Assembly (NCBI GenBank): GCA_973895155.1
Contig: OZ316893.1
Coordinates: forward strand, 17,178,670-17,242,669
Reading direction: 5' to 3'
DNA from: Marsupella aquatica
Lineage: Eukaryota; Plantae; Marchantiophyta
Length of the DNA: 64,000 nucleotides
The notes below the pieces were generated by a model that had not been told where the DNA came from, made no database searches, and saw only the letters and a program-made list of their open reading frames with translations. Shown here one piece after another: positions 14,627 to 47,937 of the stretch. The position numbers and the translations under genes are program-made. Each line of letters starts with the position of its first letter. Positions within the stretch are counted from its first letter, which is position 1.

Positions 14627-14719
14627 GTGAGTATACACCGTGTCTGTGATATTTCCTTCATGAAACTTGCATGTGTCCCTCCATGTACTTAGAATATGCA
14701 ATTGTATAAGCCTGTCTAG

Positions 14720-18286: not shown

Positions 18287-18803
18287 AGTTCAGTTTGGAT
18301 GCACATGGGGCCTTTGAACAGCCGGCAGTAGACGTTGTACATCGGGGCCAGGGGACCAGGGAGTACATCCCCTTGACAGTGAGACAGACTTATGAGGGAG
18401 AGGTTGAAGCTGAGATGGACGAAGATGATGAGTAGATGGATCTGTTTTGTTGTGAGTAGGTGACTCTTTGAAGTGCAATGAGTAGCAAATATGAGCAATA
18501 AATGGATGACTTGTTTGTGCAACCGTAGCAACTTGGTGAGTAGGATGCCAGACAAAAATGGCATGTGTGAGTATGAGAAGCAGGCTGTCAAACACCGAGC
18601 ATGGGTTCAGCAATGTGCCGCAGCCCTATTGGGTGATGTGCAAGAGGCTATTTTGGATATGTAAGGGAACTGTGCATAGTATGAGCTATATGCGTATGTC
18701 CTTGTGTGCGTCTATTCATTGTGTAGCTTCTGTAATGGACTACTACATTCATAACCCGTGTCAAATTTCATGTGGGTGTTGCAGTAACAAAATTATCCCA
18801 ACA

Positions 18804-21714
18804 ATGTCGAAGCGGAGTCATTGTAGACGGAAGACCTTTTGTAATCCTGACGGACCTAGGCGACGCAGTGAGAGGTTGACTTCAAAGACCCCTATTTCAA
18901 TGGTTGAATCTCCTGATAAGAATGAGGTAGAGGATTGCATACCTAATGGTGGTGATACAGAATATGATCCTGACCAAGATCCGAATGCAAGTGCTAGCAT
19001 GTCATCGGATGATGACATGCCAAATCCTACCCCTCCACCAAAGCCTGCTTGCAGTAAGGCAACTGGGGGAACTTCTATGAGATCTCGACCAACGCCCTCT
19101 GTATACTCAGCCCAAGCCCCGAGCAACAACAATTGCAATAACCCGCAATTTAATGCCCCCAACTCTAACTGGCCGCAAGCACGACAGGGGGGCAATAACT
19201 ATGGCGGGTCTATGGGTGTAGGCCCTTCTGCTAGCTATATGGGTCCTAGTTGGCCAAGTAAGTGTGAACATTTGAATTTGTTTCATGAATGTGGACAAGT
19301 GTATTTTGAGCTGCAATTGGCTGCTTGTGTTCCTCAATAGATGTGGGTCTGAGTATGACAATTTTCCTGGTCTGATGTGAGTGGCAGACCCAATGTGGGA
19401 CCGTATGCAGCCCACAAATATGTATGAAGGAGGGTCAATGGGGCCATCGGGGCAATTCATGGGAGGTCCTCATCCAATGGGGACAGGATGACAAGGTTAT
19501 GGTGGGTATGGTGGGAACCCAGCACCAGCACTAGCACCAGCACCTTCAATCCAACCGACAAAGACTCTGCGGAGGGGAGGAGGTATTTTCTACAGCAGTT
19601 GTAAGTAAAGTATTTAAATCAGGTAATTCACAGAGACCATATGATATTAATGGTGTTAATTGCGTTTCTCTTTTCAGATAACCCTATCACACCCCGCGCA
19701 AGCCATGGGGGAGGAACTCCTGGATTTGCAACACCAAGTAGTGCGTCAGGGAGCACTGGGAGAGGTGAGAATGTGAAGCTGGGTACTGTCGAAGTTGATG
19801 ATGAAGGCCGGATCACAACGATGAGTGCTGGAAAGAATAGATGGCACAATGACCTGCGAATGGAGTGTCTACGATGGTTGGACATTAGCTGTACTAACTT
19901 TAATTGTCAACATCCATCTGATTGGGAACTGGTTTGCAAATATATGCGAGACAAATGGGAATATTTGGGGAATTCTGGGAAAGGGGTCAGTGCTGATTGT
20001 CTTGCAGAATATGGACGAACTATCATGAAAATAGAGAGGCATCGATTGCACAAAGCATGGATTGCTGATGGCAGTAAAGCACATGCTGAAGCACCCCCAA
20101 GTGGTCATGTAGAACAATGGGCTCGACTAAGAGGGACATTCCTGTCTAGGGCAGGACAGGAGAAGTCTGCACAAATGATTGCTGCTAGAAATGCAGTGAA
20201 GAACCCTACGCTTACAGGGAGGGGAGGACATGCACCAGTAGTAGCCAAATTGGTTGGGTTCCCATGCCATACAAATCTGTATTTACATTTCAATATTGGG
20301 GTTGACTGTATGTAGTTGTAGCAGCATGGTACATTTAGGCAAGATTGACATTGAGAAACGTGTCTTGCAATGTTTATGTGCTCCAGAAAAAGCTTACTGG
20401 AGAGAAACCCACAAAAGAGGAGGTTGTGGCAGAAATCAAAAGGGTAAAGTGTGATGAAGGCAACGTTGGATCTAAACAGGTAATTTAGGAGCATTATTGA
20501 TGGACAATCTGTTGTACAGTCTTTCTTTAGATGCACAGTACTGTCAGCCCTTATGCAATTGTAAAATTGCTGAGAAGAGCCGTTTGGTTGGTGTATGTCA
20601 TATATAGCAGGGAGCAGTGTCTACCCTTACAGAGATATCAGACCGGTTGAAGACTGTGGAGAATGCTTGGCCATCAGTCGAGACTGGGATGAAGAGTCAA
20701 TTCAAGGACATAGCCAGTCTTCTTCAAAGCCAAGGATCAACCTTAAGGGAAGTACAAGCTGAATTACGTGAGTTGCGGGCGATGCACATTGTTGGCAGGG
20801 TTGAGCACCCAATTGCACATCCATTACATGAGCCTGCAAATATTGAGGAAGTTGTGCCTACAAAGAAGAGTGGTATGTGTCATCTGAAATCATGTTTAGT
20901 GTAGTGTGACTTTACCTGGGAATTTGAGGTTCATGGGTGCAGGATGGTTCAGGTTCAGGTTCTAGACCCTCAAGGTTTGTTACATTGTGCATCAGGTGAT
21001 CAAATTGCAGTGACTGCAGCAGATCCAAAGATCATCGAACCTGGTACAACTGTCATTGACAGTAAGTAAATGTTGGTTTGAATCCTCTGTCTGGCCTATT
21101 AATGTGGTTGAGTATCTATGCGATGTACGTTCAATTAGTGCAAACTTGATGGTTTGTTGAGAGCTTTAGTGCAAATATGCTTAGTTGTTGATGAAGGAAT
21201 TTGTGGCTGCTCTTGAGGTACAGAGCCAGCACAGGAGGAGGTGCGCATGCCAAATCTAGCAGGCAGGAAGAGGAGATGCAACTTAGAGGCTACCAAATTT
21301 TCAGATTCACAAGAGAAGCAGAGTGATGAGAATGATGTGGTTTTCATAGACTCTCAGCCTCCCTCAGGTATTGGAGATGAGTTTTCTCAATCCCCACCAC
21401 TGGTGAACATGGGAAAGATGAGGACCAGAAACAGTGGGAAGGAGACTTCGCCTTACAAGGCACCAAAGAAGAAGAGGAATATTAATTCTCCAAAAGGGAC
21501 AGCAGTGAGCATTGTAGTACAGTCTTCTAGGCTAATGGCAACTGATAATTCTGGTGTTTGTGTTGGGACCGGCATACTTCAAATTGAAGCAAGTACTTTC
21601 CATGGAAAGAAGGTATTTGCTGATCATGTTGTGTTGTTACTGACTGCTTTTAGGGAAATAGCAGTCAGTACTGCTGTTGCCATTGTTAGTTGGATTGGTG
21701 CTTTTGTGGCATGA
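18804..21714 (+). pseudogene. Second CACTA gene (TnpA/ORF2-like), multi-exon
   Basis: Position after tnpD. Exon 19678-20250 has the ORF2-like pattern P...EQWARL...F.S..GQEKS.QM..AR..VKNP..TGRGG. Exon structure is not fully resolved. Confidence 0.6.
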
Positions 21715-22052
21715 ATGACTCAGTCTCGAATATGAATGACATCATTGTCTACGGAAACTAGTGCGGTCAAATCAGTGTTACCAATCACTCATGGAAAACC
21801 CTATATGACTCGAACTAAGTCAGTATGAGTCACTTATGTTTGACTGATGTATAGATCTAAATACTTGACCCTCTAGTCACTAAAAAGACTATTGACACTA
21901 GTCAATAATATGACTAAGTCAATCAAAGTCACCACTTTTACGACTACTAGTTGCAAGAATGACGTCAGTGATCTAATGTCATAGATGACCGGTTTTAGTC
22001 ATAGTCAGTCGTATTTTATGGTCAAAAATAGGGGGTATTTCTACTAGTGTCG

Positions 22053-25364: not shown

Positions 25365-25373
25365 GGGGGAGGA
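25365..25373 (+). promoter_or_regulatory. Polypurine tract of element B
   Basis: GGGGGAGGA immediately before the 3' LTR. Confidence 0.8.
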
Positions 25374-26223
25374 TGTCATGCCGAAAGATTTCAGCTCAGG
25401 AATGGCTTTTATAGGGGATGATGGGCGAGGCCTCCCGGTTGGGTTGCTTGCATGTTGACTCGGAGGGGCTGCTTGGTTGGATGGATTGAGGTTTGGTGAT
25501 TGGGTGACTCATCGTCACTAGGTTTGGTGTTTGGGTGAGTCACCAGGCTTGGAGTTTGGATGAGCCTCACTGATGGCAGTTGGCCCAAACTGGATGGTTG
25601 GGTTTCCGATGCTACTTAAGACTTGAGCCTCGGCTCATTGAGGTTGGCGATTGTCTATTGAGATCTGTTGAGTTGCGTTCTGTGAGTTCCGCTCTGTTCT
25701 GCGGAACTCGACTGTTGTGCGGCGGTTTTGGAGTTCTGGGCAAGTGTTGGATCCAGGTGTGGAGTTTTTTTATCTAGGCGGGGATTTCTCAAGTTTGGAG
25801 TCTCGTCGATCCAGGCGGGGATTTCTCAAGTTTGGTGCCTCGTCGATCCAGACGGGGATTTCTTGAGTTTGGAGCCTCGTTGGTCCAGGCCCGAGTTCCG
25901 TGTGAGCTGTTTTAGACTAGTGGAGTAGCTAGTCAAGTTTTGGTTTTGTGAGCTAAGGAGGATAGTTTTTCCGTCAGATTTTGAGTAGTTAGTCACTCGA
26001 GGAGTTCTACTCGATAAGTTAGAGGTAGCGGCCCGCCGTAGGGCCAGCTACTAGACTCTTGCGGGCAAGCTTACTCGAGGGCACCTATTGTAACCTTTGT
26101 GAGAAAAGTAAAAAAATATAAAGGAGTGAGAGTTTGCTCTGAAAAGTGCTTGTCGCCTATCCCAATCGCAACCAGAAACGTGCAGTTTGCCCGAGGAGCC
26201 CCTAACTTTAAGTCCTTGCAACA
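25374..26223 (+). repeat. 3' LTR of element B
   Basis: Direct repeat of 3606-4454. Confidence 0.95.
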
Positions 26224-27254: not shown

Positions 27255-29136
27255 CAATATTTTGCAATTAGTGGTCAACACTCAACTATGGCCACTAGGA
27301 AAATCATTCAGAGTTCCCAAACGCAACCATCTATGGTTGAGACTGCCAACCTCCTCAAATTCTGACTTGCAAGAATTGTCAAGGGGTCAACACCTATTAA
27401 GGTGTTGGTTGAGATTTCACATGCAAACAACTTGCAGGCTGAAGCGCATTGTTTCTCATCACCATTCATCAACCAAGTCAGGCATACAAGAATGCAATAT
27501 TCAAAAATGGATCAAACAGTTTGGCCAGTTCCATCAGGGAACTTGGCACAATCAGAGTTGTTGAATTTTCTTAAGACTGTAGTGAATGTCCTTGCCAACG
27601 ACTTGGTGACTGTCGTGATTATTGTGCACCCAAGTCTCTTGCTGACCAGAATTATTGAAGCTGTCACTGATCTACCTTCGAGTTATAATGCTCATCTGGA
27701 GTATGGAAGCTATTGGAAGAGTGCAAAAGAAGTCCGCTCATCGCATTTCATGTCGGGTATTATTGAGTCTATTGTTTTGCTTGGAGTCTCCTAGGAACAA
27801 GAACCGGATTGGGAAAAACATTTCAAAGGGTTTCAAGGTCATTTCTTGGCTAAATCTGTGGATCAGCTTGAGCTTGCAAGACTAGCCAATGAAGATTACT
27901 TTGGCCTTTCCAAGCAAGAGGTTGCAGCAAAGCAAAAATCTGCTCTTGGAAATCACTTGCAAAGACTCATTCCTTTTTGGACACCCGGTGGCAGAACCTG
28001 TATATCTAACATTAAGCATTGCAAAATTATCAAGGCAATCATTCTTCAATTTTCCAAAAAGGAAGAAATTGTATTTGACTTCTTTACTGGTGGGCAAGTT
28101 TTATTGAATGCCCTTCGTCTAGAAAGGGAATGTTTCTCTTTTTGTTTGGAAAGGGCGGATGTGAGACCTTACGGCTTATGTGGAGAATCTCAAGTCGTTG
28201 AAGGGTGTTGCACAATTCTCAAAATCCTTATGGAAACTTCCAAGAGGGGAAGGCAGCTCAACGCAAAAATCTAATGCAAGTGGGGCAAAGGAAGGGAGGC
28301 ACTATCATATCATTGGAACAATCTCCCAATTATCATAATTGTCTAGAATTTGATAACAGATTTTCTGATCCTTGTGTTGGTAGGATTAATGTTGGCAAAC
28401 AGATTTGCCATCCTTTGGAATTTGGTGAGGTCCAAATACCGATCTACCAATTAGGGAGTTTCAAAGGACCTCGATCTCATGGAGGAAGAACACCACGATG
28501 GTGGAATAGCTCTATCTCTTCCACAATCTCATAGCCCTGTGTGCAAGCCTTGTGTGGGGTCATTTGGCGAGGTGGACTCAATTGTAAATGATATCGCACC
28601 GGTCGTGCCTGAGGATCCTTCCGATTACCTTTGGGTTGTAACTTGAGTTCAAGAAGCCGTTAACATCATCAATCCATCCCCTCCCCATACTTGGGCAGAA
28701 AATTGGAGTCCCTACGAGGTTGAGTCTGTCATCAAACATTTTGGTAATATTGTCGTGGAACTTGTAGTGGAGCATGCAAATGAGGCAGGTGCCAATTCAC
28801 TCTATCCCACTTCTCACAACTTGAACAATGATATATGTGGCAATAGACTTTTGACTCAACCCTGACTTGGAACATGATTTTGTTTTGTCAACGTACAATC
28901 AATGGACGCGTCATGACTCACCGCAAGATGGCATGTCCAGGTCCTGAGCGATGGATAACTTCTGAAATTCTTAATGCTTATTTTGGTCTGATTGCTTCAA
29001 GAGCATAATCCACGGGCAGCGAGCTCCCGCAGGTTCATCTTTTTGATACTTGGTTCTATTCTGAACTTGTTCAAGGTGGATATAAGTATGAGGACGTCCA
29101 AACATGGACCTCAAAATTGGAGTACTTCTTAACTGA
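27255..29136 (+). pseudogene. Decayed, internally deleted paralog of the ParB-MTase-Ulp1 gene at 30850-35523
   Basis: YFAISGQHSTMATRKII, LVEISHANNLQAEAH.FSSPFI, EYGSY, EEIVFDFFTGGQVL, and Ulp1-region HLFDTWFY. Many stops. Confidence 0.9.
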
Positions 29137-29630
29137 TGTAGAGATGGTCATGGTTTGTGACGCCGATGACATGGTCCTTATTCTATAATCTGATTAACTA
29201 GGCTGTTGTATGCAAGGAGTAGCTATTGATATTGCATAACAATTAGCAAGCTGGCACGAATAAGGGCAATCATGGCGTTAAGAGTAGGGATAAATGTATT
29301 TCAGCTTGAAGACTGCACAACCAAGGCAAACACAATTGAGGTAGTCACTGTCAAGGCCATAAAGGAGAAATTGGGGAAGAGAGGATTCAGCTCTTCAAGC
29401 ATACCATCTTCTTGACAAGCAAGATGGAGCATGGAGGCTCTTCAAGACGCCGGTACGGAGGTAGGCGTGGTAATTCAAGGAAGCGAGTCTCCATAGCTGA
29501 ATATGAAGTTGTGGGGTATGGTGATTGTGCTCAGGATGAAATCTAAATGTCTTGGGTGTGTAGCTTCATTTTGTTAGTTAGGTTAGTGGTTCATAGTCTA
29601 GTCTTAGAATGTTAGGGAAATAAAAGGCTA

Positions 29631-30849: not shown

Positions 30850-33800
30850 TGGGCAGCAGGAGGAACATTTGAGTCAGAAAATGAGGATGACGGAGAGGAG
30901 GGAAGTGTCCAAGAAGAGAGCAAGAAGACTTTTCAGAATCGGGCGGGGTCAGAGAATGAGTCAGAGTCAACAAGTTTAGAAGGTGGAGTTGAACCAACCA
31001 ACGATGATGTTGAGAGTGGGGAAATTCAACTCCCCCCAGCAAAGCCTCCAATAGAGAAGCGATACGCAAAGACTTCAAAGGGAGTTTCGCCCAGGAAGGG
31101 GAAAGCTGGTGTCGTGTCAGAGTCATCCACACCCAGTGGGAAGAAAAAAGTAGTGGACAAAAAATCACCATCAGGGAAACTAGGCCGGAAGAAGGTTGAT
31201 TTTGACAAAACAAAAGAAGAAGCTAAACTACCTCGGAAGAGAGTGAAAGTCATTGATCAAGCAGATGAGCTGCCTGCGGCGAAAACAAGCCGCAAGAAGG
31301 TTCAACGGGAAGAACAAAAAGAAGACAAGAAACCATCTCGAAAGAGAGTTCTTGTTTCTGACCAGCGCGAAGTCGTGCCTCAAGTGAAAGGTGGAAAAAA
31401 CGTATCTCCGGTTGATAAACAAGAAGAGGCAACGTCTTCTCGAAAGAGAATTCAAGTTGTCGAGGAAGTGCAAGGAATCAAGGACAGAATACAAAAATCA
31501 AGCAAAGCAAGGAAAGTCGCTTCACCAGCAAAACCTGAGGAGGAGAAACCATCTCAAAAGTCTCGGGTTGGACAGAAATCTGCGTCGGTCAGGAAGAAAG
31601 TTGAAAAGGTCGAACCGGAGATCAGGACGCTGAAGCAAAAGGGAGTCGTAAAAGATCCTTCACCAAAGGGAAAGAAAAAAGCAAAACTTGATGTTGAATC
31701 AGTAGTTGTGGAATCAAGGGCAAAGCCTCCTAAGCGAAGGGGAACGACCACAGAGTCGGCTGAAATTGTTGTGAAAACTCCCATGGTTAGAGTTGTGGAG
31801 AAGAAGGCCCCAAATGTTGAGAAGAAGGTTGTCATCACCTCTCAAGCTGTCGTTCACAAGCCCAAGAAAGCAAAGAAAAATCAGGAAGCTGTGGATATTG
31901 ACGAGAACCCTAGTTCCGCGAAGCTAGTTGTTGACCGTGCTCGTCTGGAGACTGCAGAAAAAACATTGGAGTTGAATAAGTCTTGGTATTGTTTTGGGAT
32001 ATCCAAATTTTTTTCTGTCCCGATTGAAAACATCCATCCCCCTCCTGCAAAGATGAATGAGAGACTCCTCAATGAGGAGCATGTCAACCATCTTGCGCAA
32101 CTGATGATGACAAATGCAGGGCAAGAACCTTTACCTGCAGATTTGGTTCCTTACAAGATGATCGACGGAGTACCGAGTTTAATTGACCTTGCGGGAAAGG
32201 ATATTGACACCAAGAAGCTTGCGGAATTCAAGTTCTTTGCCATCAGTGGTCAACATTCCACAATGGCCGCCAAGAAAATTATCCGGAGTTCAAAGACCCA
32301 ACCATCTCTCATGCAAACAGCCAATTTGCTCAAATATCGTCAAGCGCAAATTCTCAAAGGGTCAACTCCGGTGAAAATTCTTGTGGAAATTTCACACGCG
32401 AACAACCTTCAGGCGGAGGCACATCGGTTTTCATCTCCATTTATTGACCAAGTGAAACATGCAAGAATGCAATACAATGATATGGGGCGACCAGCTCGTC
32501 CACTTCCATCGGGTCGGAAATCTCCAGAATTTCAGGTAGGTTCTCCATGAGAGTTGTGAACAAAATTCAGACACTTTGTCCTTCTCTCCTTTCTACGCGA
32601 GAGTCGTGTAGAGCCTTTCCAGTATTTTGGGATTCAAAACTTTGAGCAAGCTAACTTTGAGTTGTTTGGTCTTTCCTCTCAGGAGTATGAAACACTTGCG
32701 AAAGTTACGTTAAAGGTGAATAGCATTAGCGAGTACAATTGGATTTTTTTTGCTCCAGAGAAGCTCTACTCTTTATGGAGAGAGGTTTGCAATAATTGGC
32801 TCAAGGGTAATCTTTTGGATTCAACCGGACAAATGACTGGAAAATTGAAAGAAGCAAAACAGTTGACAGGGACAACATTCCGGGTTTTTGAGGGTGCCAT
32901 AGAATCCGACATCTTGGAAATCCTCCACAAAGTGAATTTTGGGGAGGCGCTTTTGATGAAAAAGAAACATGCTTTGACTGATCTTCCCGCCATGTCAGAA
33001 TTGGCAAGAAAAGAAAAGAAAACTGACAAACTTAAGGGGGCAATACTTCAATTTTATCGGGAGAAGTACGAAGGGGTTTTCTCGCAAGGATCAACTTGGG
33101 GTGATGTAGTTCAGCAATATAATTTCATTGATGAGGAATTGGATCGTTGTTGTGCAATGGTGGACACTGGATATTTCAAGAGCCTTGTGAAGGTGTCATT
33201 AAAAGCAGAGATGCCGGAGCCACTGAAAAATAGGTTGAGAAATATTCACCAAAAGAGGTTTGGCGGCTATCTCCATGCAAGAATGGATCCTTACCGAGTT
33301 TTCTATACTGGAAATCTGCTCGCGTCTGCTGATCCTCCTTTTGATTCGGCTAGCTGCAAGGAGTCAATATTGGCATCTCTAGCGATTGTTGATTTGACCC
33401 ATACTGGAAACCGGTTTGGACGCAGTCCAAAATCTTGAACTTCTTGAAGATCGTCGTGAATATCCCAATCTGGTAACAGTTGTTTTTTTGTTCGTCGTGG
33501 TATTATTCTTGCAAGAATAATTTAAGTTGTTTGAGATCTCCCAGAGAACTATAATGCGCACCTTGAATATGGTTCATTCATGAGGAGTTATTTGGTTAAT
33601 GCTCCTTCGCAACACATGAGAGGCAATGCGGACATGGTTCTTTTCCTTGGCGTCTCCCAAGATCAGGTTCCTGATTGGGAAAAGCATTTCAAGGATTTTA
33701 CCTGTCACTTTGTGTTGGAGGAGTCCGACCTCGAGGAGACAATCAAGCCAAGTCGAGAGGATTATTCCAATATTTCGAAGGAAGATATGCAGGAGAAAAA

Positions 33801-35523
33801 AAGGGACACATTGATCTCACGACTTGAAGGCCTTGTTCCTTTCAAATTGATGACTGGACGGTCATTCACATTGAATATTAAGCCCAGTCGCATCCTGCAG
33901 AGTTTTATTCATGCATTTTCTTCGAGGGAGGAAATTGTCCTGGATTTTTTCACAGGAGGGCAGGTATTGAAGAATGCATTGATGCTTGAGTGTGAGTGTT
34001 TTTCATTCTGCTCTGACCGTGAGGATGTCTCTGACCTCATGACTTATGCAAAGAATCTTAAATTGTTAGTTTTGGTTGCACAGTTTGCCAAATCATTGTG
34101 GAAACCTCCTGGCCTTGAAGGGAGTTCGACTCAGAACTCCAATGCTAGTGGAGCAAAAGAGGGCCAACATTATCAGATTGCCGGTATAGTTTTACATTAC
34201 GCCGGGGTGGAAGCGGAGCAAAAGTTTCTAAGTTCCATTGGGGAGATGAGAATTGGTCCATCAGTCGTTCCAATTGCAAGTTGCGAAGGATTTCCTCTTC
34301 TAATGGCTGAAGGAGGTTATGGTTTGGCAAATAATTCTGAAAACTTACAGGCAGGCACGGGGTTGATTGCGTTCAACAAAACTCTGGAAGATGTTGTGGA
34401 TGATGTCTCCCTATACACGTATCGTGTAGATCCTCAAAATTTGTTTGACCCTCCAGGGTTAGAGTGCAACAAAGGTGTTAAGCAATCTCTTCTGGTTGAT
34501 GCTTTAGTTCTTCGAAGTGGCCCAGTTTTTGATGATTGTGAGGCAAAAACTACACTCGAGGATGTCGAGAAGGGGGTGGTGGATTGTGGACCCTTAAAAG
34601 AGATTGTTGTGGAGGAGGTTGGGATTGTGGAAAAAGATCACACTCCGATTGAATTTCAATGCGATGACAATGTTGACTCTCGTAGCGCTGAAGTAACAGG
34701 ACAGAATGATAACTCATTTTCTCTCACATCGAATCTTCCTGAGGTGTCAGAGAGGCAAGTCGATTGTGCGGAGGCAACCAATGAGGCAGGTGCCAATTTC
34801 CTCTCTCTTGTCTCAAGTCATAAAGTTCTAAACATAAACAAATGTCCTCTCCCGTCTCCGGATCCAATGGATAACAAAACGAGGATTGAAAATTGCCTCA
34901 GTGATCTGTTGGATCAGGATGCGGTTCTAGTCAAGACTAATGGGTGCCTAGTAACTCGTGGACAAATGAGGTGCATGAGTCCTAGAAATTGGATAAGTTC
35001 CGATATTCTAAATGCCTACTTAAGTCTCATAGTGGAGAGGAATGAACATTTCGACAGGGAGCTTCTGAAGTGCCATGTGTTTGACACTTGGTTCTATACT
35101 ACACTGACGTCAAATGGCTACTCTTACCGATCTGTGGAGGCTTGGACTTCACGACTGAAATATTTCTTAATTGATTGTCATCAAATATTTGTCCCCATTC
35201 ACGAAGGTAGCGATCATTGGGCGTTAGTTGTGATTGACATGGAACACAAGTATTTAGAATATCTCGAATCTCTGCATAACAATAGGCCAGAGGTTCTTGA
35301 AAACTTAGCCAAATATGTCAAGGATGAAATTCAAAGCAAAAGTCACAAGCAAGTCTTAGCTACTCTATGGCCAAAACATAGTCCCAAGGACATCCCAAGA
35401 CAAACTTATTACTATAATTGTGGTGTGTTCGTTATGAAGTTTGCGAACTACCGTAGTTTGGACCTTCCTTTTGATTTCACAGGAGAGGACATAGATTTGG
35501 AGAGGAGAGAAATCATTTTTTAA
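30850..35523 (+). pseudogene. Multidomain gene: K/E-rich N-terminus - ParB/Srx-like domain - degenerate N6/N4 DNA MTase-like fold - Ulp1 (C48) SUMO protease
   Basis: VPIENIHPP..NERLLNEEHVNHL..FFAISGQHS (ParB-like). LAIVDLT..FSSREEIVLDFFTGG (MTase-like). WISSDILNAY..FDTWFY..IFVPIH..HWALVVID..RQTYYYNCGVFVMKF (Ulp1). Intron from ~32537; disruption near 33420-33580; 5' end lost. Confidence 0.75.
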
Positions 35524-35689
35524 GTCTATTCAGGAATAGATTAAGCTTTCCTCCGCAATACAGTGATTTCTGCATGAGACGCGTGTAGAGGGTGACAGAC
35601 GGGGTATTTGATTTCAAGGACTGACTTGACTTCAAATGGTCTTTGGTCAAGACTGTTCCAATGACTAACCATCCGGATTCGATATTTTT

Positions 35690-36866
35690 ATGTTTGTAGA
35701 GTTTGTTCCCAAACTCCACTCAGAGATCAAGCAAAAGCTCTTGATTTTTGACCTTAATAAAGTTTGTTTTGATTCCGTAAAGAGTAAAAGCTCCGGACCA
35801 TTTCGGAGGCTCACATCTGTGAGGGGCATTCACTGGGGAAGATGGGGCGGGATTTATGTATGTGGAGCGTCCAGGACTTCATAAATTTTTACAAGTGATT
35901 TTCAGGTATTACGATGTCGCGATTTGGACTTGCGCGGGAAGGCTGAGAACAAATGAAATGATGGATCTTGTTTTCAACGATGCTGAACGAAAGCAGTTCA
36001 AGTTTGTATTCACCCAAGAAGAAACATTTGACACTGGCTTTTTGAGGTCAGATATTACAGATGGGAAGACAAACATACTTCTTAAGGAAATCCAAACTAT
36101 TTGGGATCGTTTTGGCAATAGATATGGTCCGACAAATACTGTTCTCATCGATGACTCTCCTCTGAAGTGTTTCGCAAATCCAAATGTTAACACGTTATTT
36201 CCAGTTCCATTTGTTCACAACATGGGAGGCGACACTTTTCTAATGGAGATATTGCTTCCACTTCTTCAAAGAATGCACAATGCTTTTGATGTAAGACACT
36301 TTCTGAATGTTAACTACCCAAAATGGTCCACCTACAATAAGGGTGAAGCCCAAAGGAGGCATTGTGATATCTTTGCAGGACTCACTCAAGCCTGGGGGCA
36401 CCGCGTTGCTGGCATCGTCGATAATTTCACTGTCCTTGATCACACGGCAGACGAGATTTCCTGGGAAGTGAAGCATACCGTGCAAAGTTCGCCACCGGTG
36501 TAGGATATGAGTGACCGTGACATCAATTCAATTGCTAAAGGTCTACTTGGAGATGGTTATTCCGGCCCATATTTGCAAAATAAGCGGCAATTTGTTTGGG
36601 AAGTCCTAAAAACTAGGGACCTTACTTCTAAGTTTAAAAACTTGTATCCTAAAGACGCTTGCAACCGAGATAGAAAGTTTGATAAGTCAGGAAGTAGACT
36701 TACTTGCTCAAATATGTTTTGTAGCAACACACATTCAATGATCGTTATTAAAAATTTGGAGACTTGTAACATTGAGGGGAGGCCTATTACAAGTAAACAA
36801 TTGTTATGGACTTTTGTATGGTTCCCGTTAGTGGGTGACAATGAAAATGTGACATTACTCATGTGA
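35690..36866 (+). pseudogene. FCP1/SCP (NIF-family) HAD phosphatase-like gene
   Basis: KLLIFDLNK (motif I variant), ERPGLHKFL..YDVAIWTCA, LLKEI..IW, NTVLIDDSPLK..NP. Frameshift at ~35860 and stop at 36501. Confidence 0.85.
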
Positions 36867-37073
36867 CTATTCTCCACCAAATTCGTACGCCAAAAATGTA
36901 TTTTACATGGATTTGGAAATTTCAACTGGTGTTTAGGAAACTTGAAAGAGTGTTCTAGAAATTCCAGTTCCAAGTTTTGAAAACTTCATTTAAGTTTGTT
37001 GGATAATGTATTTATTTAATTTGGAAATTTTACCAAGCCACTTTGGAAAAAAGAATTTCCAGAATTAGTGAAA

Positions 37074-37538
37074 TCACTGATACATGCAATCGTCGTCCAA
37101 TCCAGCTTTGAACCTATCCTCATCCTGTCGAAACCCATCCTCTCGATCCAGAAAAAAATGAGGTCCGGGATAGCGACTCCGACTCTGGTCGTTCGGGATG
37201 TTCGAATCTGAAAAGCTCACACGTCCGGTGTCTGCTTGGATGTCTCTGAAAAAAGCTGTCCTTTCCACCCGATACACATTGGAAGGATCCGGGTCGTGAA
37301 TAGAGAACCTCTCTCGGAAAGGAAGTGGAGGCGAAGGATCACGTGACAGAAGGTGTCCAGTTCTGTGGCTAATACCCTCATCCGGGGCTAGCCACAACCT
37401 GTTCCTCTTGGTCGACGTCTCTGGGCACTGCGTAAAAGACAGAGTCAAATCTAAACCCAGATCTCTAATCAACCTCCAAACCATCGCCTTTGGCGGATTG
37501 CAGCTCTCCGATTTTGCTATTTGCTTCCCCTTATCCAT
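37074..37538 (-). CDS. Hypothetical 154-aa ORF (MDKGKQIA...)
   Basis: Open ATG-started frame within the cargo block; no recognisable domain. Confidence 0.35.
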   Translation of the reverse strand: MDKGKQIAKSESCNPPKAMVWRLIRDLGLDLTLSFTQCPETSTKRNRLWLAPDEGISHRTGHLLSRDPSPPLPFRERFSIHDPDPSNVYRVERTAFFRDIQADTGRVSFSDSNIPNDQSRSRYPGPHFFLDREDGFRQDEDRFKAGLDDDCMYQ

Positions 37539-37579
37539 TGAGTCAATGGAAACAACGAATGCAAAACTCAGGGAGAAGA

Positions 37580-37672
37580 GAAGAGGTGAGTCCGGGCAGA
37601 CCAGAAACGAAATGAAGGGAAGAGGTGAGTCTGGGCAGTGCACAAAAAAAATGAAGGGAAGAGGTGAGTCGG
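37580..37672. repeat. 39-bp-period repeat with core GAAGAGGTGAGTC, 3 copies
   Basis: Cores at ~37580, 37619 and 37658, just upstream of the 37538 ATG on the minus strand. Confidence 0.8.
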
Positions 37673-38372
37673 TGCCTCACAGAAACGAAAGGGAGAAATG
37701 CGTTTAGGGTTGAACAAACACGAAGTTGAACAAACCCAAAGTTGAACAAACACTACACTTTGAGAGAGTCCAAACAATCATATCAACCACAAACAAAAAT
37801 ACGTACAGATTGAAGGTATAATTATTCACCGTACAACTGTACGAGTACATGCATTTCTGATATCTGCACAAATATGCACTCAGGAAAGAGACTTATGGTG
37901 CGTCTATCTCCTTTAACGGCTCAGATCCGAACATCCAGTTTAATAGCGTCGGGCGCTAGTATAGGTTCCAAAGAAAACCTTAGAAATTCACACTCAACCT
38001 ACTCCAAGTCAGAAGACTCGGACTCGCTACTGCTAGACCTATCGGTAGACTTGGCTTCATCATCTATAAATTTGCTTCTAGGTCCATCGTTGAGTAAAGG
38101 CTGATGGATGAATTTCCTATCTGAACCTCTCCTTAACCTTAAGCCCTTACTCTCCCAAGTAAGTGTTCTCCTCTGTTCTTCTTTGCGTGCAGCATATTCT
38201 GCATACGAGGGCAACACGAAAGGCTTCTGAGGAGAAACGAGAACCTCCAAAGATTAAAACGTTCTTGAAGATTCCACTCCGATCTGGAAGAGGAACGGAA
38301 CCACATTAGAATTGAAAATGAAAATGGGACAGTTCCAGAATTGATAATGTAAAGTGAAGTAGCTTACGGGCA

Positions 38373-41230
38373 TTACTCAAAAGAATCCGAATCTTTTGTT
38401 TCTCCCGTCGTGTGCCTCTCCTTCTCTTTTCCTTCATTTTCCTCTCCTTGTCCTCCTGAAGCATCATCTCCAATAGCATCTCCCTCCTCTTCATCTTCAG
38501 AGTCAAAATTTAAGACAGAGCAAACTTTATCTTTTTGTTTTCTTCCCACATCTTTAGCGGGAGACGAGGAATTGACATCTTTTGGAATCAATAACTCCAT
38601 CCATGTCTTTTTCGCAATCTCAACAAACTCTTTTCGGTTTTCTATACCAAGAATAAAACGACCACAATAGTCACCAGCAACAAATGTACTTCCCGAACCC
38701 ACAGTCCAGTCCATGACAATGTCACCTGGCCGAGTGATTAACTCTAACACAGATTGCATGAACCCAACGAACAAGCGTCCATTGCTAGCAAACGCTACTG
38801 GAGGAGTTGGATCCTTCCTCACACTCGGGAGACCAATAAGGTTAGTGATAGAAGGATCTTCAGTTGCAGAGAGGGGTCAAAACTTGGGGTCCTTTGGAAC
38901 CTTAACCTTTGACGAAACACGACTGAACAGATCCAATCTCAATGTGAAAACCTGTGAAATCCCAACAACTTCCTTTGTTAAGATGCCGACGATCCAACCA
39001 GAAAATCATTACAATCATGGCATAACAATGAATTTTGGATAGCGCCAGGCGCTAACAAAGAATATCCCCTTAACCAAAGGGTATATGAAAACATTTTTAG
39101 CTAGCGCTCGGCGCTAACAAAGGACAGCACAAAGAGTGAGAGAATTTACCTTACAATCACTTCGGGCCATGTACATTGGAACTCCCATAACCACGTTCAC
39201 GGTTTTCACACATTGAAACTTTTGAGACTCCTGGCTCGCGGCGATGACCTGCGAGATCTGATCATACTCGCCGGTATGCAAAATGGCCAATATACCATCA
39301 TCTGCTAGAAAAGGGTCCATTGCGCGAAAGAATGAACCAACAATTCTGTGATCTGGGGAATTCCATTTTGGAGACTTATTCTCTAAAAGGGATGGGCGCA
39401 GTCCAGTTGGGAGGTAAATGAATCCAGCATCAACTCCAAATGATCTTATCTTTCCTCCTCTTATGACTCCTTTCTCCCTTAGACCAAGCAAGACTAGGTC
39501 TTTCACCCACTTCTCCACATTTGACACCCAAGCTGGTTTCTGCTCTTTTGTGAACACACTCTCAAAGAAGTCCATTACGCTGGACTCAACAAAAACATGC
39601 CTAGAAGTCTTAGACTTGAACTGTCCAACATCTCGTTGAACACCAGCAGAACTGGTCTCCATTGCCATGTACAAGCGATACAGATATCTCTTGGCTCGCG
39701 TCCGGTTGCGAATGGTATAGTCTTCCTTGTCTCCGTACTTGGACTGCCAAATTGTGCTAAAAAACTTTGCCTTCACTATTTCACCGTATGTCTTGAAATC
39801 ATTGGTGATGTTCAAGACCAAAGCTTCAACGTCTCCACTCCTCCTAGCGTCAGACGATCAGCAGGTAGGATCGACTGGACTTGCGAAAGAGATGTCTGTA
39901 AGATTGCAATTGCAATTCCTTCCACCAAACTCCACATGTGCCATGTATGACACCACTATTTAACAGGGTCATCATTCACACTCGGGGGATGGTAAAATTG
40001 TTTTCTGAGCTCGGGTGTACAGTGAGCGACAAGAAGAGTACAACGCAGTTGTGGATCCAAGTAGGAGACAACAGTGAACAGACGCGCGCGGTCCATTGTA
40101 CAAACTATAGAGTCCGGCTTCTTTTCGCGTTTGTTCCTCTCCGTAAGAATGTACATTTCTGCAGTCGCAATCACCAAACTTTGGGCTTATCAGGGGGTAA
40201 TCTTGGATGTCTTTATGCTCCACTCCTTCATTGCCTCCTTCATCATGGCAGCATACCGCTTACCAGTCTCTTCAGATGACCACGGGCGACCTTGACTTGT
40301 CGTAGCAGCCAAGTCAAGCTTAAATTGAAGTGAATACAACTTAATCTTGTTTTCACACAAGATGTAAACCAATGCTTCCAATGGCATCTGCTTGGTATAC
40401 CAAGACCCCTTTCTTGTCTTGGCACAAACAGTTTGAAATCGCTTGAAGCTGCCGGGGTCGATGATCGGCTTGTAGGCCTCCAAGTCATGAGTTAAAATCC
40501 AATTGATTCTATTGGCATCGAGAATCCACGATGGTTCCACCACAGCTTGCCCTAACCTGTAAGATATAATGGCAAATATTAGCGCCTGGCGCTAACTAAC
40601 CTTGCAAAAATCAAGCGCAATCGACCAAATTCAATAGCATTTATGCAACTTGAGGAATACTTACTGGTTCACCGTGTGCATAGCCGCTTCAAACTCAACT
40701 AGAGAACCTTGATCTCCCTTAAAAACAGTGCATTGAACACGCGGATGGTACTTGATATTGTCTGGATTCTCATTTGTTACTTGGGTCCACGAGTAGAGTC
40801 GATGATTCCCGTCAAAAACACAGAACATCTTATCCTTCAAAATGTGGAAATCTGGATCAGTAGCGCATTCTGCTTCAAACAAGTCGTTCTGGGCAACCCA
40901 AACAGCATCCCAGGTCTCCCAAATTTTAGGCGTGCAGAATTGAATGACTCCTTCTGAATCCGTGGGCTGGACGTAAAACCACATCCCAATTGAAGAGTTG
41001 TACCCAGAGCTCCGAAATGAATCCTTGAGCTTATCGATAGATGCACTATTTTTCTGTAAAGTCCGAACGATTTCCATGTGAACAAGCCGACAAAGAGGGA
41101 TACACGGCGGCTCTTTCTTCTCCCCCCTGAAATTGACTCCAAATAACATTGCGTATTTCTCGATCACAGCATCCATGGACAGAACTCCCTCGCCCCCGTC
41201 CTCCATCGAAAAATCTATGTAAGACTCCAT
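38373..41230 (-). pseudogene. ParB/Srx-like + beta-class N4/N6 DNA methyltransferase-fold gene (exons 41230-40665, 40556-39150, 38951-38373)
   Basis: IPLCRL..IVRTL..SFRSSGY..FCVFDGNHRL (ParB). VDAGFIYLPTG..FFRAMDPFLADDGILAI (motif IV-VI region). ITRPGDIVMDWTVGSGSTFVAGDYCGRFILGIE (motifs X-I-II). Both GT-AG introns preserve the frame. Several premature stops and one frameshift. Confidence 0.85.
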
Positions 41231-44200
41231 GATGCCTCATTTTGGCTTTGGAATCGCTTGACTAATGTTTCGCAAAGAGTTCGACGCAAACGAACGAGTG
41301 ACTCTCCGAGTATAAACTGATCCGGAGAATGAGGACTCGGATGTTTCAGAATGGCCAGGAGAATGATTCTCCATGTTTGTTTAAGATGCACACACATGCG
41401 GAACCCCACCGCAACGTGCTTCTCGCGTGATGCAATGTTTCTTGTGGTGCTGTACCGATATGGACGAATGATTGACAATGACCCTAAACGTGCATAGAGG
41501 TCGTTCTAACGATCAAGGAAGACACTATCGCAAAAAGATCTTATCTGATATACCCTGTGGCAGACCGACATGTATGACAAGTACACATAAAAAAGCACGA
41601 GCATCCAAAAGCAGACCTACTAAAGGTTGACACTTGTCACATTTTAACTCATTTATAGGTACTCGTGAATATATTTATCCAGGAATTTGTTATAAATTGT
41701 AACGATAAACGGTCAAAGTTACTGTTTAAAAAGACCATTTATGTCAATATTCTACTTTGATCTAATATTAGCGCCTGGCGCTATTATTATGCTAGACTAA
41801 AATATATCTTGAAATAAAGGATTTTAATAATAGCGCCTGGTGCTAGTAACATTGTACTAAAAAATCATGCGAATGATTGGACTGAAGCGAGAAAGTTTTT
41901 GTAATAAACGGCTTCTATTTCTATCAATTTTATGAAAGTGCCAGGCACTATTTTTCTTTTAGTCTCAAATAGGGCTTAAATGTGTAGATTTCAATAATAG
42001 CGTCCGGCGCTAGTAACGAGACACTTCAAAATGGCTTAGATGTTTGGACCCAAAATATGCGAGTTTCTATAAATAATGACCGTTACATCTTGACATTTTT
42101 ATCAATTTTATGATAGCGCCTAGCGCTATTATTATGATAACTTCTACTCCAGCTCAAATGGATCGATTTTAATATTAGAAGAGGGTAATATTGTCGTCTG
42201 CCATAAATAAGATGCTATTTCCAAGGAAACCCGATACATTTCAGCTTAAATGTTGGCATAATGAGTAGCTGTTGTAAGATGTTAACCTGTGTCAGTAACC
42301 AAAATGGCCGTTGATCTTTGCTTTTGTTGTTCATTTTTGGGCTCTTTCAGATGTGGAAAACGCTAGCGCCTGGCACTACTATATTACCCCGTCGGTTACA
42401 ACGTCAAAACAATTAATTCAACAGTAACTATCCACCGAATTGATGGTTTTGTCGTTTCTTGAACGGTAAGAAAATCCGTACCCAACGGATCCTATAACCG
42501 CTCGACGGCTCTTTCCATTTGAGACTTGGATTAAGAAGAAACCCTCAACCATACAATCTAGCTTCATTTTACCATGTATCATTATTTTATATAGTTGGTT
42601 ATCTTTGGGGAGTTAGAATGTCTCGCATTATTCGAATAACGTGTCCGAATACAGGTGACGTTGTGACGATCCCTGTGTCGATTTCCAAAACCACAAAACA
42701 TGTTAGTGATAATTACCTGTGTGGAAGATTTGGGGTGACGGGAAAACATATTTTGAGTGTCAGAACTTTGAACGATGGGCCCGCTCATTTTGATATTGAA
42801 GCGGAGGACGTTGTTTGGAATCTCGAATATGGCGTGGAGTACTTGATTTTCATTCAACTAAGGGACATCGTTCAGGTCAAGGTGGAGAGGCCTCAGGTGG
42901 CTCACGATGTGATTGACCTTACGTCCGACGCTGAATGCTCTAAGGGTTCTCCACCAATCTCAAAGGGCGGTGAGGTCAAGAAGGAGGGCGGCAGTACCAG
43001 TTTGTTGATGCTCCAGGTACCCCCCATATTGATTGCGTCGGAGGGGTGTGATGATGGAGACACTCTAACTCGTCCTGTTCTGGTTGTGTACAGAAGAAGC
43101 GCACTTGATGCCTTGTTGAAGTCAACTGGACAAAGTGAGTTATCGCGCTTTGTTAGGTCTGAGGCATTCATTCACAAACAAGTTGAATGCTTACTTGTAG
43201 AGTACAATGGGAATACCATATTTGAGCTTCCACCTGTTCAAGGTGTTGGCTCGAAACAGGGATCGTCTGCAAAACATGGATCGATCCAAGGATTGCTACC
43301 TCTGGACTAGAATCTTTCCTACTTTTGCTAATGTCGTTCCGAAGAAGATGTGGGAGTTTGGGAAAGTAAGTTGTAGTGGTTCTCTCGAATGCTGAAATAG
43401 AGCATGTGAGTTTTACACCAGGACTCAAGTCTGAAACTGTAATGGATGGGATGGGACCCCCAAGCTCTCTGGTCAGCATTGTCCTGGGAGGTTGATCGAT
43501 GTTGGAGGAATTGTTTGTCGCTATTGCCTTCAAGTTCCATTTTGTGTTGAGTCTTGTCCAGCAAAAATGTTTTATATGTACCCGCAAGTTTTGATCGAAA
43601 ATGACACTGCAAAACACATGTCACGACTTGCAATCCATATGGGGGTGCACAACCATCCATGTTGGAAGGTCTGGTCTAGAAGTGCTGAGAAAATAGCAAT
43701 AGAAGAGATACGGAGACAGCATGAGAAGTCTCCTTCTTCTACACCGTGCATTTTGAAAAATGAGATCACTGGATCTTTAATGGATGCCGTAAGTGAGTCT
43801 GTGGATGACATTTCAAAGCTAGAAGAATCAGAAATCTGGAAATCACTTATGCTCGTTTCAACACCTCAGAAGTTTTCTGCGTTATGTAAGAGCGTTCGTA
43901 AAGATCAGGTTGGTCAAGGTGATTTGGAATATCTGGTTTGCATGCAGAAGAATGTTACGTTTCCTTTTCTCCAAAGATATCTTCTTCCTGGGCAGGGCTG
44001 TAAAGGTGATAGAGCACATATTTTCAAAATGACTATATCAAAGGTCATGGATCGGGAGTAGATTTACTACGTCAGATGAAGAAAGGGGGGCCTCTAGAAG
44101 GAGCATGGGTGAGCTTTGATGTGATGAAAAGGATGTCCAAAGAATGGAGTACTTTTAGTGCACATGTGTATGACCATAACTATCGAGCTTTGTGCACAAT

Positions 44201-46636
44201 ATTTACTTGTGAACTCAAAGTAGAGGACACTGCATCGCTTGAGAAAGCTTGGAGGTTGATGATCGAAGTCGCTTTGGAGAACGGTTTAAAGGGCGTGGAA
44301 ATCCATGGTTTCATGGCAGATAACGCTCAAGCAGGATGGATAGCGGTTAGGAATGTCTTCTTTGATGGCCATCCAAACCCGGAGAGAGCGATCGGATGCA
44401 TTCCACTTTTATCAGTCTTTGCATCGGCACTCTATCAAAGGAGTACTTGAAGAAAAACGTGCTGAACATCGAATCCTTTGGGACAAGTTGCGCAATGCTG
44501 CTTCATTTGTGGAAGCCTACAGGGTTTCACGAGAGATTGATTCATGGTGGAGATCTGGAAATTGTATTCCTGGGAAACTTAGAATGTTGCAAGGATGGAT
44601 TGCTTGGTGGGTTGTGAAGTGGCGTCAGTGGGGAAACTTCATACGTTTGGTGAGTCAATGTATACTAGCGCCTGGCGCTAGTATTAATCTCCCTTTTCTA
44701 ATTGTGATCTTTACTCATGTTTTTTGCCAGCGCCGGGCGCTAACGTACAAATAGCTTGATAGCGTCTTCAATCTTCACAATCATCATGAAAAACATTCAT
44801 ACCTTTCGTCCGCCCATTTTGAAGTTCCACTTTATTTTTTATTTGATATATTGTACTGAATTTGACAAAACTCTTTTTCAGAGCAAAAGTGCACTTGAAG
44901 GGGGGATGATTCCCAATTGCACTGGTTCTGAAGCTGTTCACGGAATCATGAAAGCATGGTAGGGAAAGAAAACAGTTGGTTTGTTCGAAGGATGTAAGAC
45001 CGATCACAACAGAGCAATCTCACAAATAGCAGCCTATACAGCATATCGTGAAAGGCTCCATCGGGGTACCGGTCCAACAGTGTTTGAATTGGCTTTTCGT
45101 TCGGCTGACCAGGCAGGGTCCCCAAAACTCTTCGAAGAAGCCTCTAATATGTTACTCGCAAATGCAGCTGAATTTAATTTGGAGAGGGATTCTCCGTTGA
45201 ATGGGGATTTTGTGACAAAGTCTATGAAAAGAAAAGGTCCAGCGACCGGGAATGTCTCTCCACAAGACTCCCATCGACATGACACGGTTCTCATAACTAC
45301 ACCAAATACCCGAGGTTGCAAGAGGAGAAATTTGAACTCATCCGAGTTTGAGCACATTCCGATACTTAGAACTCCTCCTTCGAATCCAGTTATCGATTTG
45401 TCTGAAAGTGGCTCTCCAGTTTCCCATCATGTCACTCAATCTTTCAAAGTTCCAGAAAGTGCTCTGAACACCACTCCATTCATTCTTGTAGACACTTTGC
45501 TTTTTGAAGTGGACATTGTACCTGGGTCTTGGCATCTGCGGAGAGTTTCCAGACACGGTGCTGGACCACAGTGTAATGGGACGTTGTCTGGAAGTTGTGA
45601 TAGAGATGAGTGTCGTAATCAAATTAAGAAGGTCGGATATCCTTCAAATGCAGGGGTTTTCGGAATAGTCGTCAAAGGTTACCGCTTATTCAGAGGTGAA
45701 CACCATCCAGAGCTTGTCTGGTTCTGCCCCACTCGTGATTGGTGGAAGAGCCGCCCTCGTCGAGGTATTGTGAACCTCCCTACTTTCCCAGACTTTTTGC
45801 CAGTACAGAAAGGCACTCATCTTTCAAGTCTGGAGTTGAATTTCCTTCAAGAGCAGGGCATTGAAGTCTTGAGAGGAGGTGCTATTTCACGTTGTCCTTC
45901 TCCATTTGAACTGAGAATCAACATTGACGTTTTTCCTGAAAAGATCGATCTTGCACAAGTTAACATCCGTTTTTGAACGAGAAACGGGCGTGCGATGAGC
46001 TCCAGATCAAATCTCACTTAGGAATATCGTAAAAGGATTGAATCAACAACGAAAGAAACAATGACTTTGATCAAAACTATGGAAGTTTCATCTGGAAATT
46101 CATACGGGAAACGATTCCAGATACGCACACATGCACATTTACGAACTGCAAATACTTACTGGGTGCAGATTTGCATTTTCCCTTGTTGCTCTTGTGAAGA
46201 TTTCTTTCATCGACATTCTTGAGGGAAACCTTTCATGCCATGTAAACACTTGTACTGGGTTTACAAAGTTATCTGCAAGCTTGATCCTGTGGACAATATC
46301 CTCGCAAGCCAACCGATTCTTACCATTGCGGAACTGCGTTATATTCTAGGGAGGCAGAATGCTGATGGTTTATAGGAAGGTTTAGTATTCTAGTTTACGT
46401 TCAACGGGTATGTAGGACTTGTTGTTTCGTAACGGTAACTTTGTTTTGGTTAGCGCCCGACGCTAGTAAACAACATTTGGTTTCTTTTCAACACGGCTCA
46501 ATCTTTTGTGGGTTTCACAAAAAACTTAATTTGTTTTTACAATTTTACGGATGTGTAAATTTCATTGTACGGGTAACGGAGATTTGTTTGTATTCAATCG
46601 TCACTTGGCCTTCAGTTTTGTTAGCGCCCGACGCTA
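39040..46636. repeat. Dispersed 15-bp palindrome TAGCGCCWGGCGCTA (at least 11 good copies)
   Basis: Starts at 39040, 39102, 40580, 41769, 41831, 41936, 41998, 42114, 42364, 44666, 44728, 46451 and 46622 (0-2 mismatches each). All lie in introns or intergenic DNA. Confidence 0.92.
42618..46375 (+). pseudogene. Mutator-like transposase: GCM-like Zn domain - DDE - SWIM
   Basis: VSCSGSLEC.N..C, CRYC..C..CPAK..IHMGVHNHP (GCM/WRKY-like). WVSFDVMK, FMADNAQA, SDAFHF, TGSEAVH (D, D, C/DxxH, E). CSCEDF..PCKHLYWV (SWIM, ~46184-46260). Intron 44650-44881; several stops and frameshifts. Confidence 0.8.
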
Positions 46637-47734: not shown

Positions 47735-47937
47735 CATGACATATATTATGACCTTGACATTTGTGCCTCGCTTAAACATTTTTTCTCTCATGGACATGTT
47801 TTGCTCATCTCAATATCTTTTATCACCTCGACATATTTATATCACTTGACATCCTTTTATCACCTTGACATATTTATATCACTCGGCATCTTTTTATCAC
47901 TCGACATCTTTCGTGCAACACACGAGCATGGGGCTAG
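47735..47937 (+). mobile_element. Helitron 3' end
   Basis: CGTGCAACACACGAGCATGGGGCTAG|T preceded by degenerate CACCTTGACATC repeats; paralog of 48590-49084. Confidence 0.7.

Follow-up and report, generated by a model that had tools for sequence, protein, structure and literature searches.

The window analysed here is a 64,000-nucleotide stretch of contig OZ316893.1 of Marsupella aquatica, and positions are counted from its first letter. It is repeat-rich land-plant DNA holding Ty3-like elements, a CACTA element and a unit of at least four genes that runs from about 30870 to about 47000. We concentrate on the first gene of this unit, in which a ParB-fold domain, a methylase-like domain with dead motifs (pseudo-methylase) and an Ulp1-type protease follow one another (Table 1). 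A preliminary description had proposed such a three-way fusion at 30850-35523, and had seen in it a DNA-loading deSUMOylase that might serve as counter-defence against SUMO-dependent silencing. To compare other copies of the gene we mapped onto it the contigs of four public runs, plus run X2 (labels X1 to X5 mark these copies below). Relatives were collected with a full HMMER search using the read-through translation of the gene (X at stops) and an E cut-off of 0.001. This search returned 138 clusters and was the only one to recover them: word-index homolog searches gave no match, or one 79-aa fragment. A metagenome scan gave a single match, in a phage polymerase, which we judged to be due to chance.

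Table 1. Features of the gene, its paralog and its neighbours (+, plus strand; -, minus strand).
Feature	Positions	Strand	Basis and remarks
Deleted, broken paralog of the same gene	27255..29155	+	60-71% DNA identity; order ParB, pseudo-methylase, Ulp1
Exon 1, Lys/Glu-rich low-complexity N-terminal region	30871..31968	+	Open frame; 5' end lost; three SUMO-interaction-like words
Exon 1, ParB/sulfiredoxin-fold domain, GQHS replacing GxxR	31969..32535	+	Model, Foldseek, VIA, motif census
Predicted phase-0 GT-AG intron, 147 nt, two in-frame stops	32536..32682	+	Splice signals, relatives' ORF breaks
Exon 2, conserved middle domain of about 230 aa, candidate DNA-binding part	32683..33370	+	Matched by 50 of 138 relatives
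Pseudo beta-class N4/N6 methyltransferase domain	33371..34119	+	M.RsrI match, motifs
Acidic linker, open over 244 codons, with EAGAN word	34120..34851	+	Frame, motif words
Ulp1/SENP-type (C48) protease domain	34852..35539	+	Pfam and PDB matches; residues compared across copies
NIF/HAD phosphatase-like cargo gene	35823..36503	+	Pfam NIF E 3.2e-15; start further upstream
Palindrome TAGCGCCNGGCGCTA, 13 copies (14 at three mismatches)	37944..46636		All in introns or between genes
Second ParB-like and methylase-like gene, two introns	38373..41375	-	Pfam N6_N4_Mtase E 1.8e-8; limits hand-drawn
Broken transposase-like gene	42620..46376	+	Translation; two VIDL[TS] words

One gene in three parts, dead in this copy

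Three open reading frames (ORFs) sharing one frame cover the gene (30850-32550, 32560-33438 and 33535-35523), and every motif quoted in the preliminary description was found at its place in that frame (ISGQHS at 32242-32259, LAIVDLT at 33379-33399 and IVLDFFTGG at 33934-33960). The last ORF, of 662 codons, encodes the second half of the methylase-like domain, the linker and the C48 protease. Hence, the join between methylase and Ulp1 parts is directly seen. The EAGAN word of the linker also precedes the terminal domain in several relatives. Between the ParB part and the rest, the splice signals comprise a GTAGGT donor, a CTAAC branch word, a pyrimidine tract and a CAG acceptor, and the ORFs of relatives are interrupted at the same place: 46 of the 53 ParB-only relatives that reach the end of exon 1 stop within 40 residues of it, and 31 of 32 relatives with the middle domain start no further than 30 residues from the beginning of exon 2. 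From these shared breaks and the canonical signals, it is likely that a conserved intron joins the ParB part to the downstream parts.

The limits of the gene differ somewhat from those first proposed. Positions 30850-30870 are part of an upstream, very high-copy repeat; other copies of the gene continue differently at this junction, and the true 5' end and start of the gene are therefore lost. At the other end, other copies lack 2 bases at 35516, and the frame likely ends at about 35539 rather than at 35523. The extent given earlier was thus right as to the shared frame, but its first 21 bases are repeat, its end lies too early and the intron had gone unmentioned.

This copy is interrupted in the methylase part by frameshifts at 33407, 33467 and 33482 and by stops at 33523 and 33532. 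In X1, a 437-base contig over 33099-33526 has 1, 7 and 1 additional bases at the three breaks, a net gain of 9 that leaves the frame open. The additional base at 33407 is also present in X2 (three contigs, full depth) and in part of X4. X4, and most or part of X3, also have the additional bases at 33467 and 33482. Where this copy has the stop at 33532, X1 and most of X3, but not X4, have a sense codon. Judged by these contigs, the three frameshifts are private to this copy. The idea that one of them hides a DLPY catalytic motif was rejected; other copies have the extra base after LAIVDLTHTG.

We translated 39 of the 40 listed single-letter differences between copies (one upstream row was excluded): 28 change a residue, 10 are silent and one is intronic. 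The listed transitions (n = 28) fall mostly in CG (17) and CHG (9) and rarely in CHH (2) contexts, which make up 14%, 14% and 72% of the background. Read from these contexts, the pattern is the signature of plant 5-methylcytosine (5mC) decay, and host 5mC acts on the element.

The fusion of ParB-fold, pseudo-methylase and Ulp1 parts in one gene is real, and this copy of it is dead. The preliminary description had rightly placed the three parts in one gene: the X1 contig restores the frame, several relatives are joined (P0142, below, among them) and the intron is predicted. We looked for separate ParB and Ulp1 genes in intact copies, and both the contigs of other copies and the joined relatives support a single gene.

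Relatives and domains

The gene belongs to a family that carries no name. We looked up 20 of the 138 relatives and found a species name on 8, and the named members come from two liverworts and a fern. Most clusters match a single part of the gene (74 ParB only, 40 the middle domain only and 12 methylase only), while 5 match middle domain and methylase and 7 match ParB together with later parts. Six of the latter are gene models from the annotations of Riccia sorocarpa or Calypogeia fissa. The seventh is the cluster including P0142, a protein of 1009 aa that contains the ParB, middle and methylase parts and that, judged by its source, is probably an intronless ORF call. The fern relative is from Ceratopteris.

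The protease sets the window gene apart from this family. Neither Ulp1 nor the linker was matched in any of 145 relatives, and C48 was found in none of the 64 that were scanned with Pfam. Of the 25 relatives with a methylase match, nine have at their end a small domain marked by GPxKG and E[YF]GS words, which do not occur in the window; the remaining ones are shorter or have a different end, and a protease could be hidden in a later exon. The subfamily thus seems, from these sequence comparisons, to have replaced the small terminal domain of an old ParB-middle-pseudomethylase family of liverwort and fern transposons with a captured SUMO protease of host type. The small C-terminal domain occupies the last 90 residues in P0142, P0144, P0003, P0007, P0052, P0080, P0083 and P0111, and has no match in Pfam.

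The paralog upstream gives a measure of age. Between it and the gene, synonymous sites are saturated and nonsynonymous divergence (dN) is 0.19-0.46 across all three domains, including 84 Ulp1 codons. Because the paralog also has the same order of parts, these estimates imply that the fusion was under purifying selection and that the Ulp1 swap is old within the host lineage. One may still argue that Ulp1 is a neutrally captured host fragment, or that ParB is a gene separate from the rest. The splice is predicted from sequence only, and 126 of the 138 relatives were called as separate ORFs. Yet dN lies far below synonymous divergence in the Ulp1 part, the linker stays open over its whole length, the splice signals are canonical and joined relatives exist, so that we regard this explanation as improbable.

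The ParB part has no match in Pfam or NCBIfam, a weak ParB match in PHROGs (E 0.17) and an Atlas match to a cluster with DUF3723 on 31% of its members (0.95). Its AlphaFold model reached a predicted local distance difference test score (pLDDT) of 94.5 when aligned with 58 relatives, and only 32.5 when folded without alignment. The ten best Foldseek matches of the model are all Noc, ParB, PadC or sulfiredoxin, the best at E 1.9e-3 and none at or below 0.001. The eight best VIA matches all have the ParB/sulfiredoxin fold, with Z from 7.8 to 4.9; the first two have Z 7.8 (root-mean-square deviation 4.7, 127 residues aligned) and Z 7.7 (2.7, 94 aligned), values below 8 being middling. We therefore have a confident model of a ParB/sulfiredoxin fold. 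The arginine of the GxxR motif is replaced in every one of 68 relatives (Ser in 64, Leu in 2 and Thr in 2). This arginine of Box II is needed for nucleotide binding, which its loss abolishes (PMC12704722). Since it is missing throughout the family, a cytidine triphosphate (CTP) clamp is unsupported, and so is the earlier term DNA-loading if it is taken in that sense. Other positions are near-invariant among the relatives (Arg45 in 94%, Asn159 in 98%), and an altered binding pocket is possible on this basis. More likely, the ParB part is a dimerising module rather than a CTP clamp. The middle domain that follows has no match in Pfam, PHROG or PDB.

The methylase part alone reaches only E 0.041 in Pfam, and the cut-off of PF01555 was passed by 5 of the 64 relatives scanned. 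A family profile of 29 rows matched M.RsrI in PDB (E 5.3e-8). The motifs come in the order IV, target region, I of beta-class N4/N6 methylases, so that IV precedes I as in M.RsrI, CcrM and DpnA, but here PPY is lacking and the glycine loop is shortened. The catalytic motif [DNS]PP[YFW] occurs in none of the 138 relatives, many of which are fragments, and the consensus in its place is D[FL][STA]R. The glycine loop (FxGxG), which should bind S-adenosylmethionine (SAM), is one residue short relative to M.RsrI. Beta-class methylases are expected to carry an acid after strand 2, where we found RECF instead of an acidic end, the position being Cys or hydrophobic. As the DPPY motif is missing from all relatives, the pseudo-enzyme state is, on the motifs, old, conserved and family-wide. 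It is not erosion of this copy, contrary to the earlier view of a more eroded fold than that of the minus-strand protein. The opposite possibility is that the domain is active with unusual motifs and marks the element with N4-methylcytosine or N6-methyladenine, Ulp1 being an add-on. Of the 23 relatives whose sequence covers motif IV, 18 retain its Asp, and DFFSGG is strongly conserved, as an active enzyme would lead one to expect, but the three changes to the catalytic motif, the loop and the acid make activity very unlikely.

The Ulp1 part matches Pfam Peptidase_C48 (E 4.9e-28), and its best PDB match is SENP2 (E 4.8e-35). The protease keeps His (35215), Gln (35401) and Cys (35419), as first described. 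The catalytic Asp position (35266, in YLES) reads Glu in this copy, which had also been reported, but this is not a feature of the gene: it is Asp at full depth in X2 and X3, X1 has no coverage there, and in X5, whose contig does not differ from the window, it is again Glu. The His-Asp-Cys triad with its Gln is hence complete in other copies, the same set as in SENP1, SENP2 and Ulp1. Ubiquitin matches (E 0.02 and worse) were judged to be due to chance.

Neighbouring genes and dispersed palindromes

Downstream of the protease lies the phosphatase-like gene, in which other copies have 5 more bases at 35851 and whose first motif region (35640 on) is frameshifted in this copy. With a phosphatase next to a SUMO protease, the unit may carry a small set of tools for removing host marks. 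Two further open frames, 36504-36866 (plus strand) and 37077-37520 (minus strand), have no family match and are covered by contigs of other copies.

The minus-strand gene encodes another ParB-like and methylase-like protein. Its methylase part matches DpnA and CcrM and has a SAM motif, DWTVGSGST, with a better loop than that of the plus-strand gene; its catalytic position reads FIYLPTG in this copy. In Atlas it matches DUF3723 and ParB_N, and the first match of its ParB part has the same size and label as that of the plus-strand ParB. The two ParB domains nonetheless show no pairwise or profile similarity, which bears out their earlier description as very divergent, and the profiles of the plus-strand family did not match the minus-strand gene. 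A viral scan and a phage tblastn search with the minus-strand ParB gave no match. Head to head with this gene lies the transposase-like gene. We tentatively call it Mutator-like from motifs seen by eye (a zinc finger, D-D-E with FH, and a SWIM-like CxC..CxH); its broken pieces had no match in Pfam or PDB.

The palindrome of this region is 15 bp long, and its 13 copies compare with 0.06 expected, a number reached in 0 of 100 shuffles. None of the 14 copies lies in an exon, although hand-drawn exons make up 70% of the stretch, and wherever a copy departs from the palindrome within its core, the change is C-to-T or G-to-A. Contigs of related elements over 40599-44663 have two palindrome copies joined with about 40 other letters between them, so that this palindrome seems to be in use in other subfamilies as well. 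We found no other dispersed palindromes in 30870-37900. From the protease onwards, contigs overlap as far as 37081, and three runs cover every one of the 30 bins to 48000.

These features could also be understood if the protease regulated transposition by deSUMOylating the transposase, or repair proteins where the DNA is cut, with the palindromes organising the transposition complex. The two VIDL[TS] words of the transposase (42909 and 45389) are the only ones in six frames of the 64 kb, and it also has several psiKxE words. Peptidase_C48 is described as a recurrent accessory domain of active terminal-inverted-repeat elements, and MURB as binding MURA (PMC12973397). The palindromes, however, lie inside introns, as VANC motifs do, rather than at known ends, and no ends are defined. 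We regard this explanation as unlikely.

The rest of the window holds other elements. The CACTA element (9619-22049) has 31-base inverted ends and a Pfam Transposase_21 match, with cargo ORFs encoding a PHD-finger (12318-13031) and a BRCT domain (13939-14646) beside the transposase. It is nested in a Ty3-like element whose two long terminal repeats (3598-4454 and 25366-26223) are 94.6% identical over 858 bases. Two pyrimidine-rich arrays at 47776-49086, with a repeat unit of 18-19 bases and an identical 35-base word closing each of them, are probably the ends of another element. Exons of a host amino-acid transporter gene lie at 58493-59365 (Pfam Aa_trans E 4e-6).

A candidate self-targeted anti-silencing protein

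We read the gene as the broken remnant of what was probably an accessory gene of a transposon. Its product would be a self-targeted anti-silencing protein that brings a deSUMOylase to its own element. We give this reading slightly less than even odds, at about 0.45. The ParB fold would serve for dimerisation, and the middle domain and dead methylase for DNA contact, together forming a scaffold on the DNA of the element. The palindromes would be the landing sites, bound directly or via the minus-strand ParB-methylase as a putative partner, a pairing that the preliminary description had also considered possible. The protease would then remove SUMO from the chromatin proteins that silence the element, and the outcome would be anti-silencing. 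SUMO1/2 act in transposon silencing in Arabidopsis (PMC6084981).

Several observations weigh against this proposal. The ParB-Ulp1 gene and the transposase would have to belong to one element, but none of the contigs listed joins the two, a search for element ends and for inverted repeats on either side of the unit found none, and its left end has been replaced by another repeat. No palindrome lies within or next to the ParB-Ulp1 gene itself, and loading through a CTP clamp is unsupported for the ParB part. Among the rows listed for the other copies, the X3 contig has 4 bases fewer at the first break, which does not restore the frame, and the rows listed for the high-depth copies include no difference at the stop at 33523. 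In Arabidopsis, the ligase activity of PIAL and the contact between MOM1 and SUMO are dispensable for silencing (PMC6084981). Finally, even in the closest known design, the KIU proteins discussed below, no function of Ulp1 has been established (PMC13317346).

A further difficulty concerns the substrate. In an ungapped alignment to SENP1 and SENP2, the Asp of WLND aligns to Ser: the motif reads WISS in the gene and WITS in the paralog. With Ser codons in both, the change is old. The Asp of WLND binds Arg64 of SUMO, and we equate WLND of SENP with N450-D451 of yeast Ulp1. D451 is needed to hold SUMO in yeast Ulp1, and D451N abolishes SUMO binding (PMC3216068). The C48 domain may thus no longer act on SUMO, but on another ubiquitin-like protein, on another substrate or on the fusion itself by self-processing. 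SENP2 and SENP1 are nevertheless its closest structures by a wide margin (E 1e-35 to 1e-27, compared with 3e-7 for ChlaDub2), and words like SUMO-interaction motifs (SIMs) could restore the grip on SUMO, which leaves a change of substrate rather unlikely. There are three such words in the 366-aa N-terminus and one in 6123 aa of 28 relatives, in a count whose patterns were picked after looking, and in which two of the three words are copies within an internal repeat (D18). The earlier identification as a deSUMOylase therefore stands in part. The intact triad of other copies and the SIM-like words, here and in the transposase, speak for it and the replaced SUMO-contacting Asp against it, and from the residues we regard the activity as plausible.

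The proposed design has its nearest precedent in the KIU (Kaonashi) VANC-Ulp1 proteins of VANDAL Mutator-like elements in eudicots (PMC13317346). In both cases an accessory gene, of a Mutator-like element in eudicots and of a putative one here, has a captured Ulp1 fused to a larger protein, and short motifs lie in non-coding DNA of the element. The carrier is different here, being a ParB fold with a pseudo-methylase, and its relatives come from liverworts and a fern. As regards a VANC domain, no Pfam family matched the N-terminal two thirds of our protein, with no VANC sequence directly compared. Hypomethylation of their own element is a feature of KIU and VANC, whereas the present element is known from sequence alone. 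For the counter-defence suggested in the preliminary description KIU thus offers a precedent, and in the liverwort such a role is conjectural.

The carrier itself resembles accessory genes known from brown and red algal transposons, where ParB-methylase genes occur with inverted repeats (PMC12477816; bioRxiv 10.1101/2025.02.11.637652). The giant DNA transposon Sola1-1_Ec32 of Ectocarpus has a ParB-like domain and an N4/N6 methylase in one accessory protein, encoded opposite the transposase like the minus-strand gene here (PMC12477816). It differs in that the present unit has two such genes, of which the plus-strand one has dead motifs and an Ulp1 tail, and in its land-plant host. In the Plavaka genes of Bostrychia, PAG2 combines PF01555 with SET and PAG3 combines ParB with a 2-oxoglutarate oxygenase (bioRxiv 10.1101/2025.02.11.637652). 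They share with our unit a ParB-like domain with a chromatin-modifying enzyme, nearby arrays of inverted repeats and a multi-gene accessory cassette. Here, in contrast, the effector is a SUMO-type protease, ParB and methylase are in one chain and the palindromes are dispersed rather than tandem. Bacterial ParB, Noc, KorB and VirB, the last a ParB-like anti-silencer (PMC10676424), have the same ParB/sulfiredoxin fold and a palindromic site of similar size (PMC10676424; PMC12704722). The liverwort protein has no GxxR arginine, no helix-turn-helix was identified in it and no ParA accompanies it.

We found no paper in the open-access literature on a combination of ParB, pseudo-methylase and Ulp1, although supplementary curated element tables may list such genes. 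By comparison with these systems, what appears to be new is a putative KIU-like design for Ulp1 delivery on a ParB-methylase chassis otherwise known from algal transposons. The dimer is the working form of beta-class methylases, and METTL14 is an example of a catalytically dead partner (in part after PMC4738411). A more speculative and, in our opinion, doubtful extension is that the ParB-methylase and the ParB-pseudomethylase pair, like active and dead methylase subunits in other systems, and form a two-subunit, self-addressed chromatin machine of bacterial components that lands on parS-like intronic palindromes and delivers the SUMO protease, the C-terminal slot of the dead subunit being an exchangeable effector port. 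If so, the KIU design would have arisen a second time and independently, and one could ask directly with this system whether local deSUMOylation lifts transposon silencing in plants.

So far, an ability to bind their own DNA and release it from silencing has been demonstrated for VANDAL elements only, and the presence of Ulp1 in so many transposons still calls for an explanation. In the present unit, a swap has apparently put Ulp1 on an unrelated carrier, probably a self-targeting one, and this points to convergence on targeted deSUMOylation. As an experimental system the unit is small and tractable: it offers a defined site of 15 bp, two proteins that are candidates for binding it, a protease that is simple to assay and, as a control, the intact natural relative P0142, which has no Ulp1. 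The analysis further brings to light a large family of ParB-pseudomethylase proteins, as yet unnamed, in liverworts and ferns.

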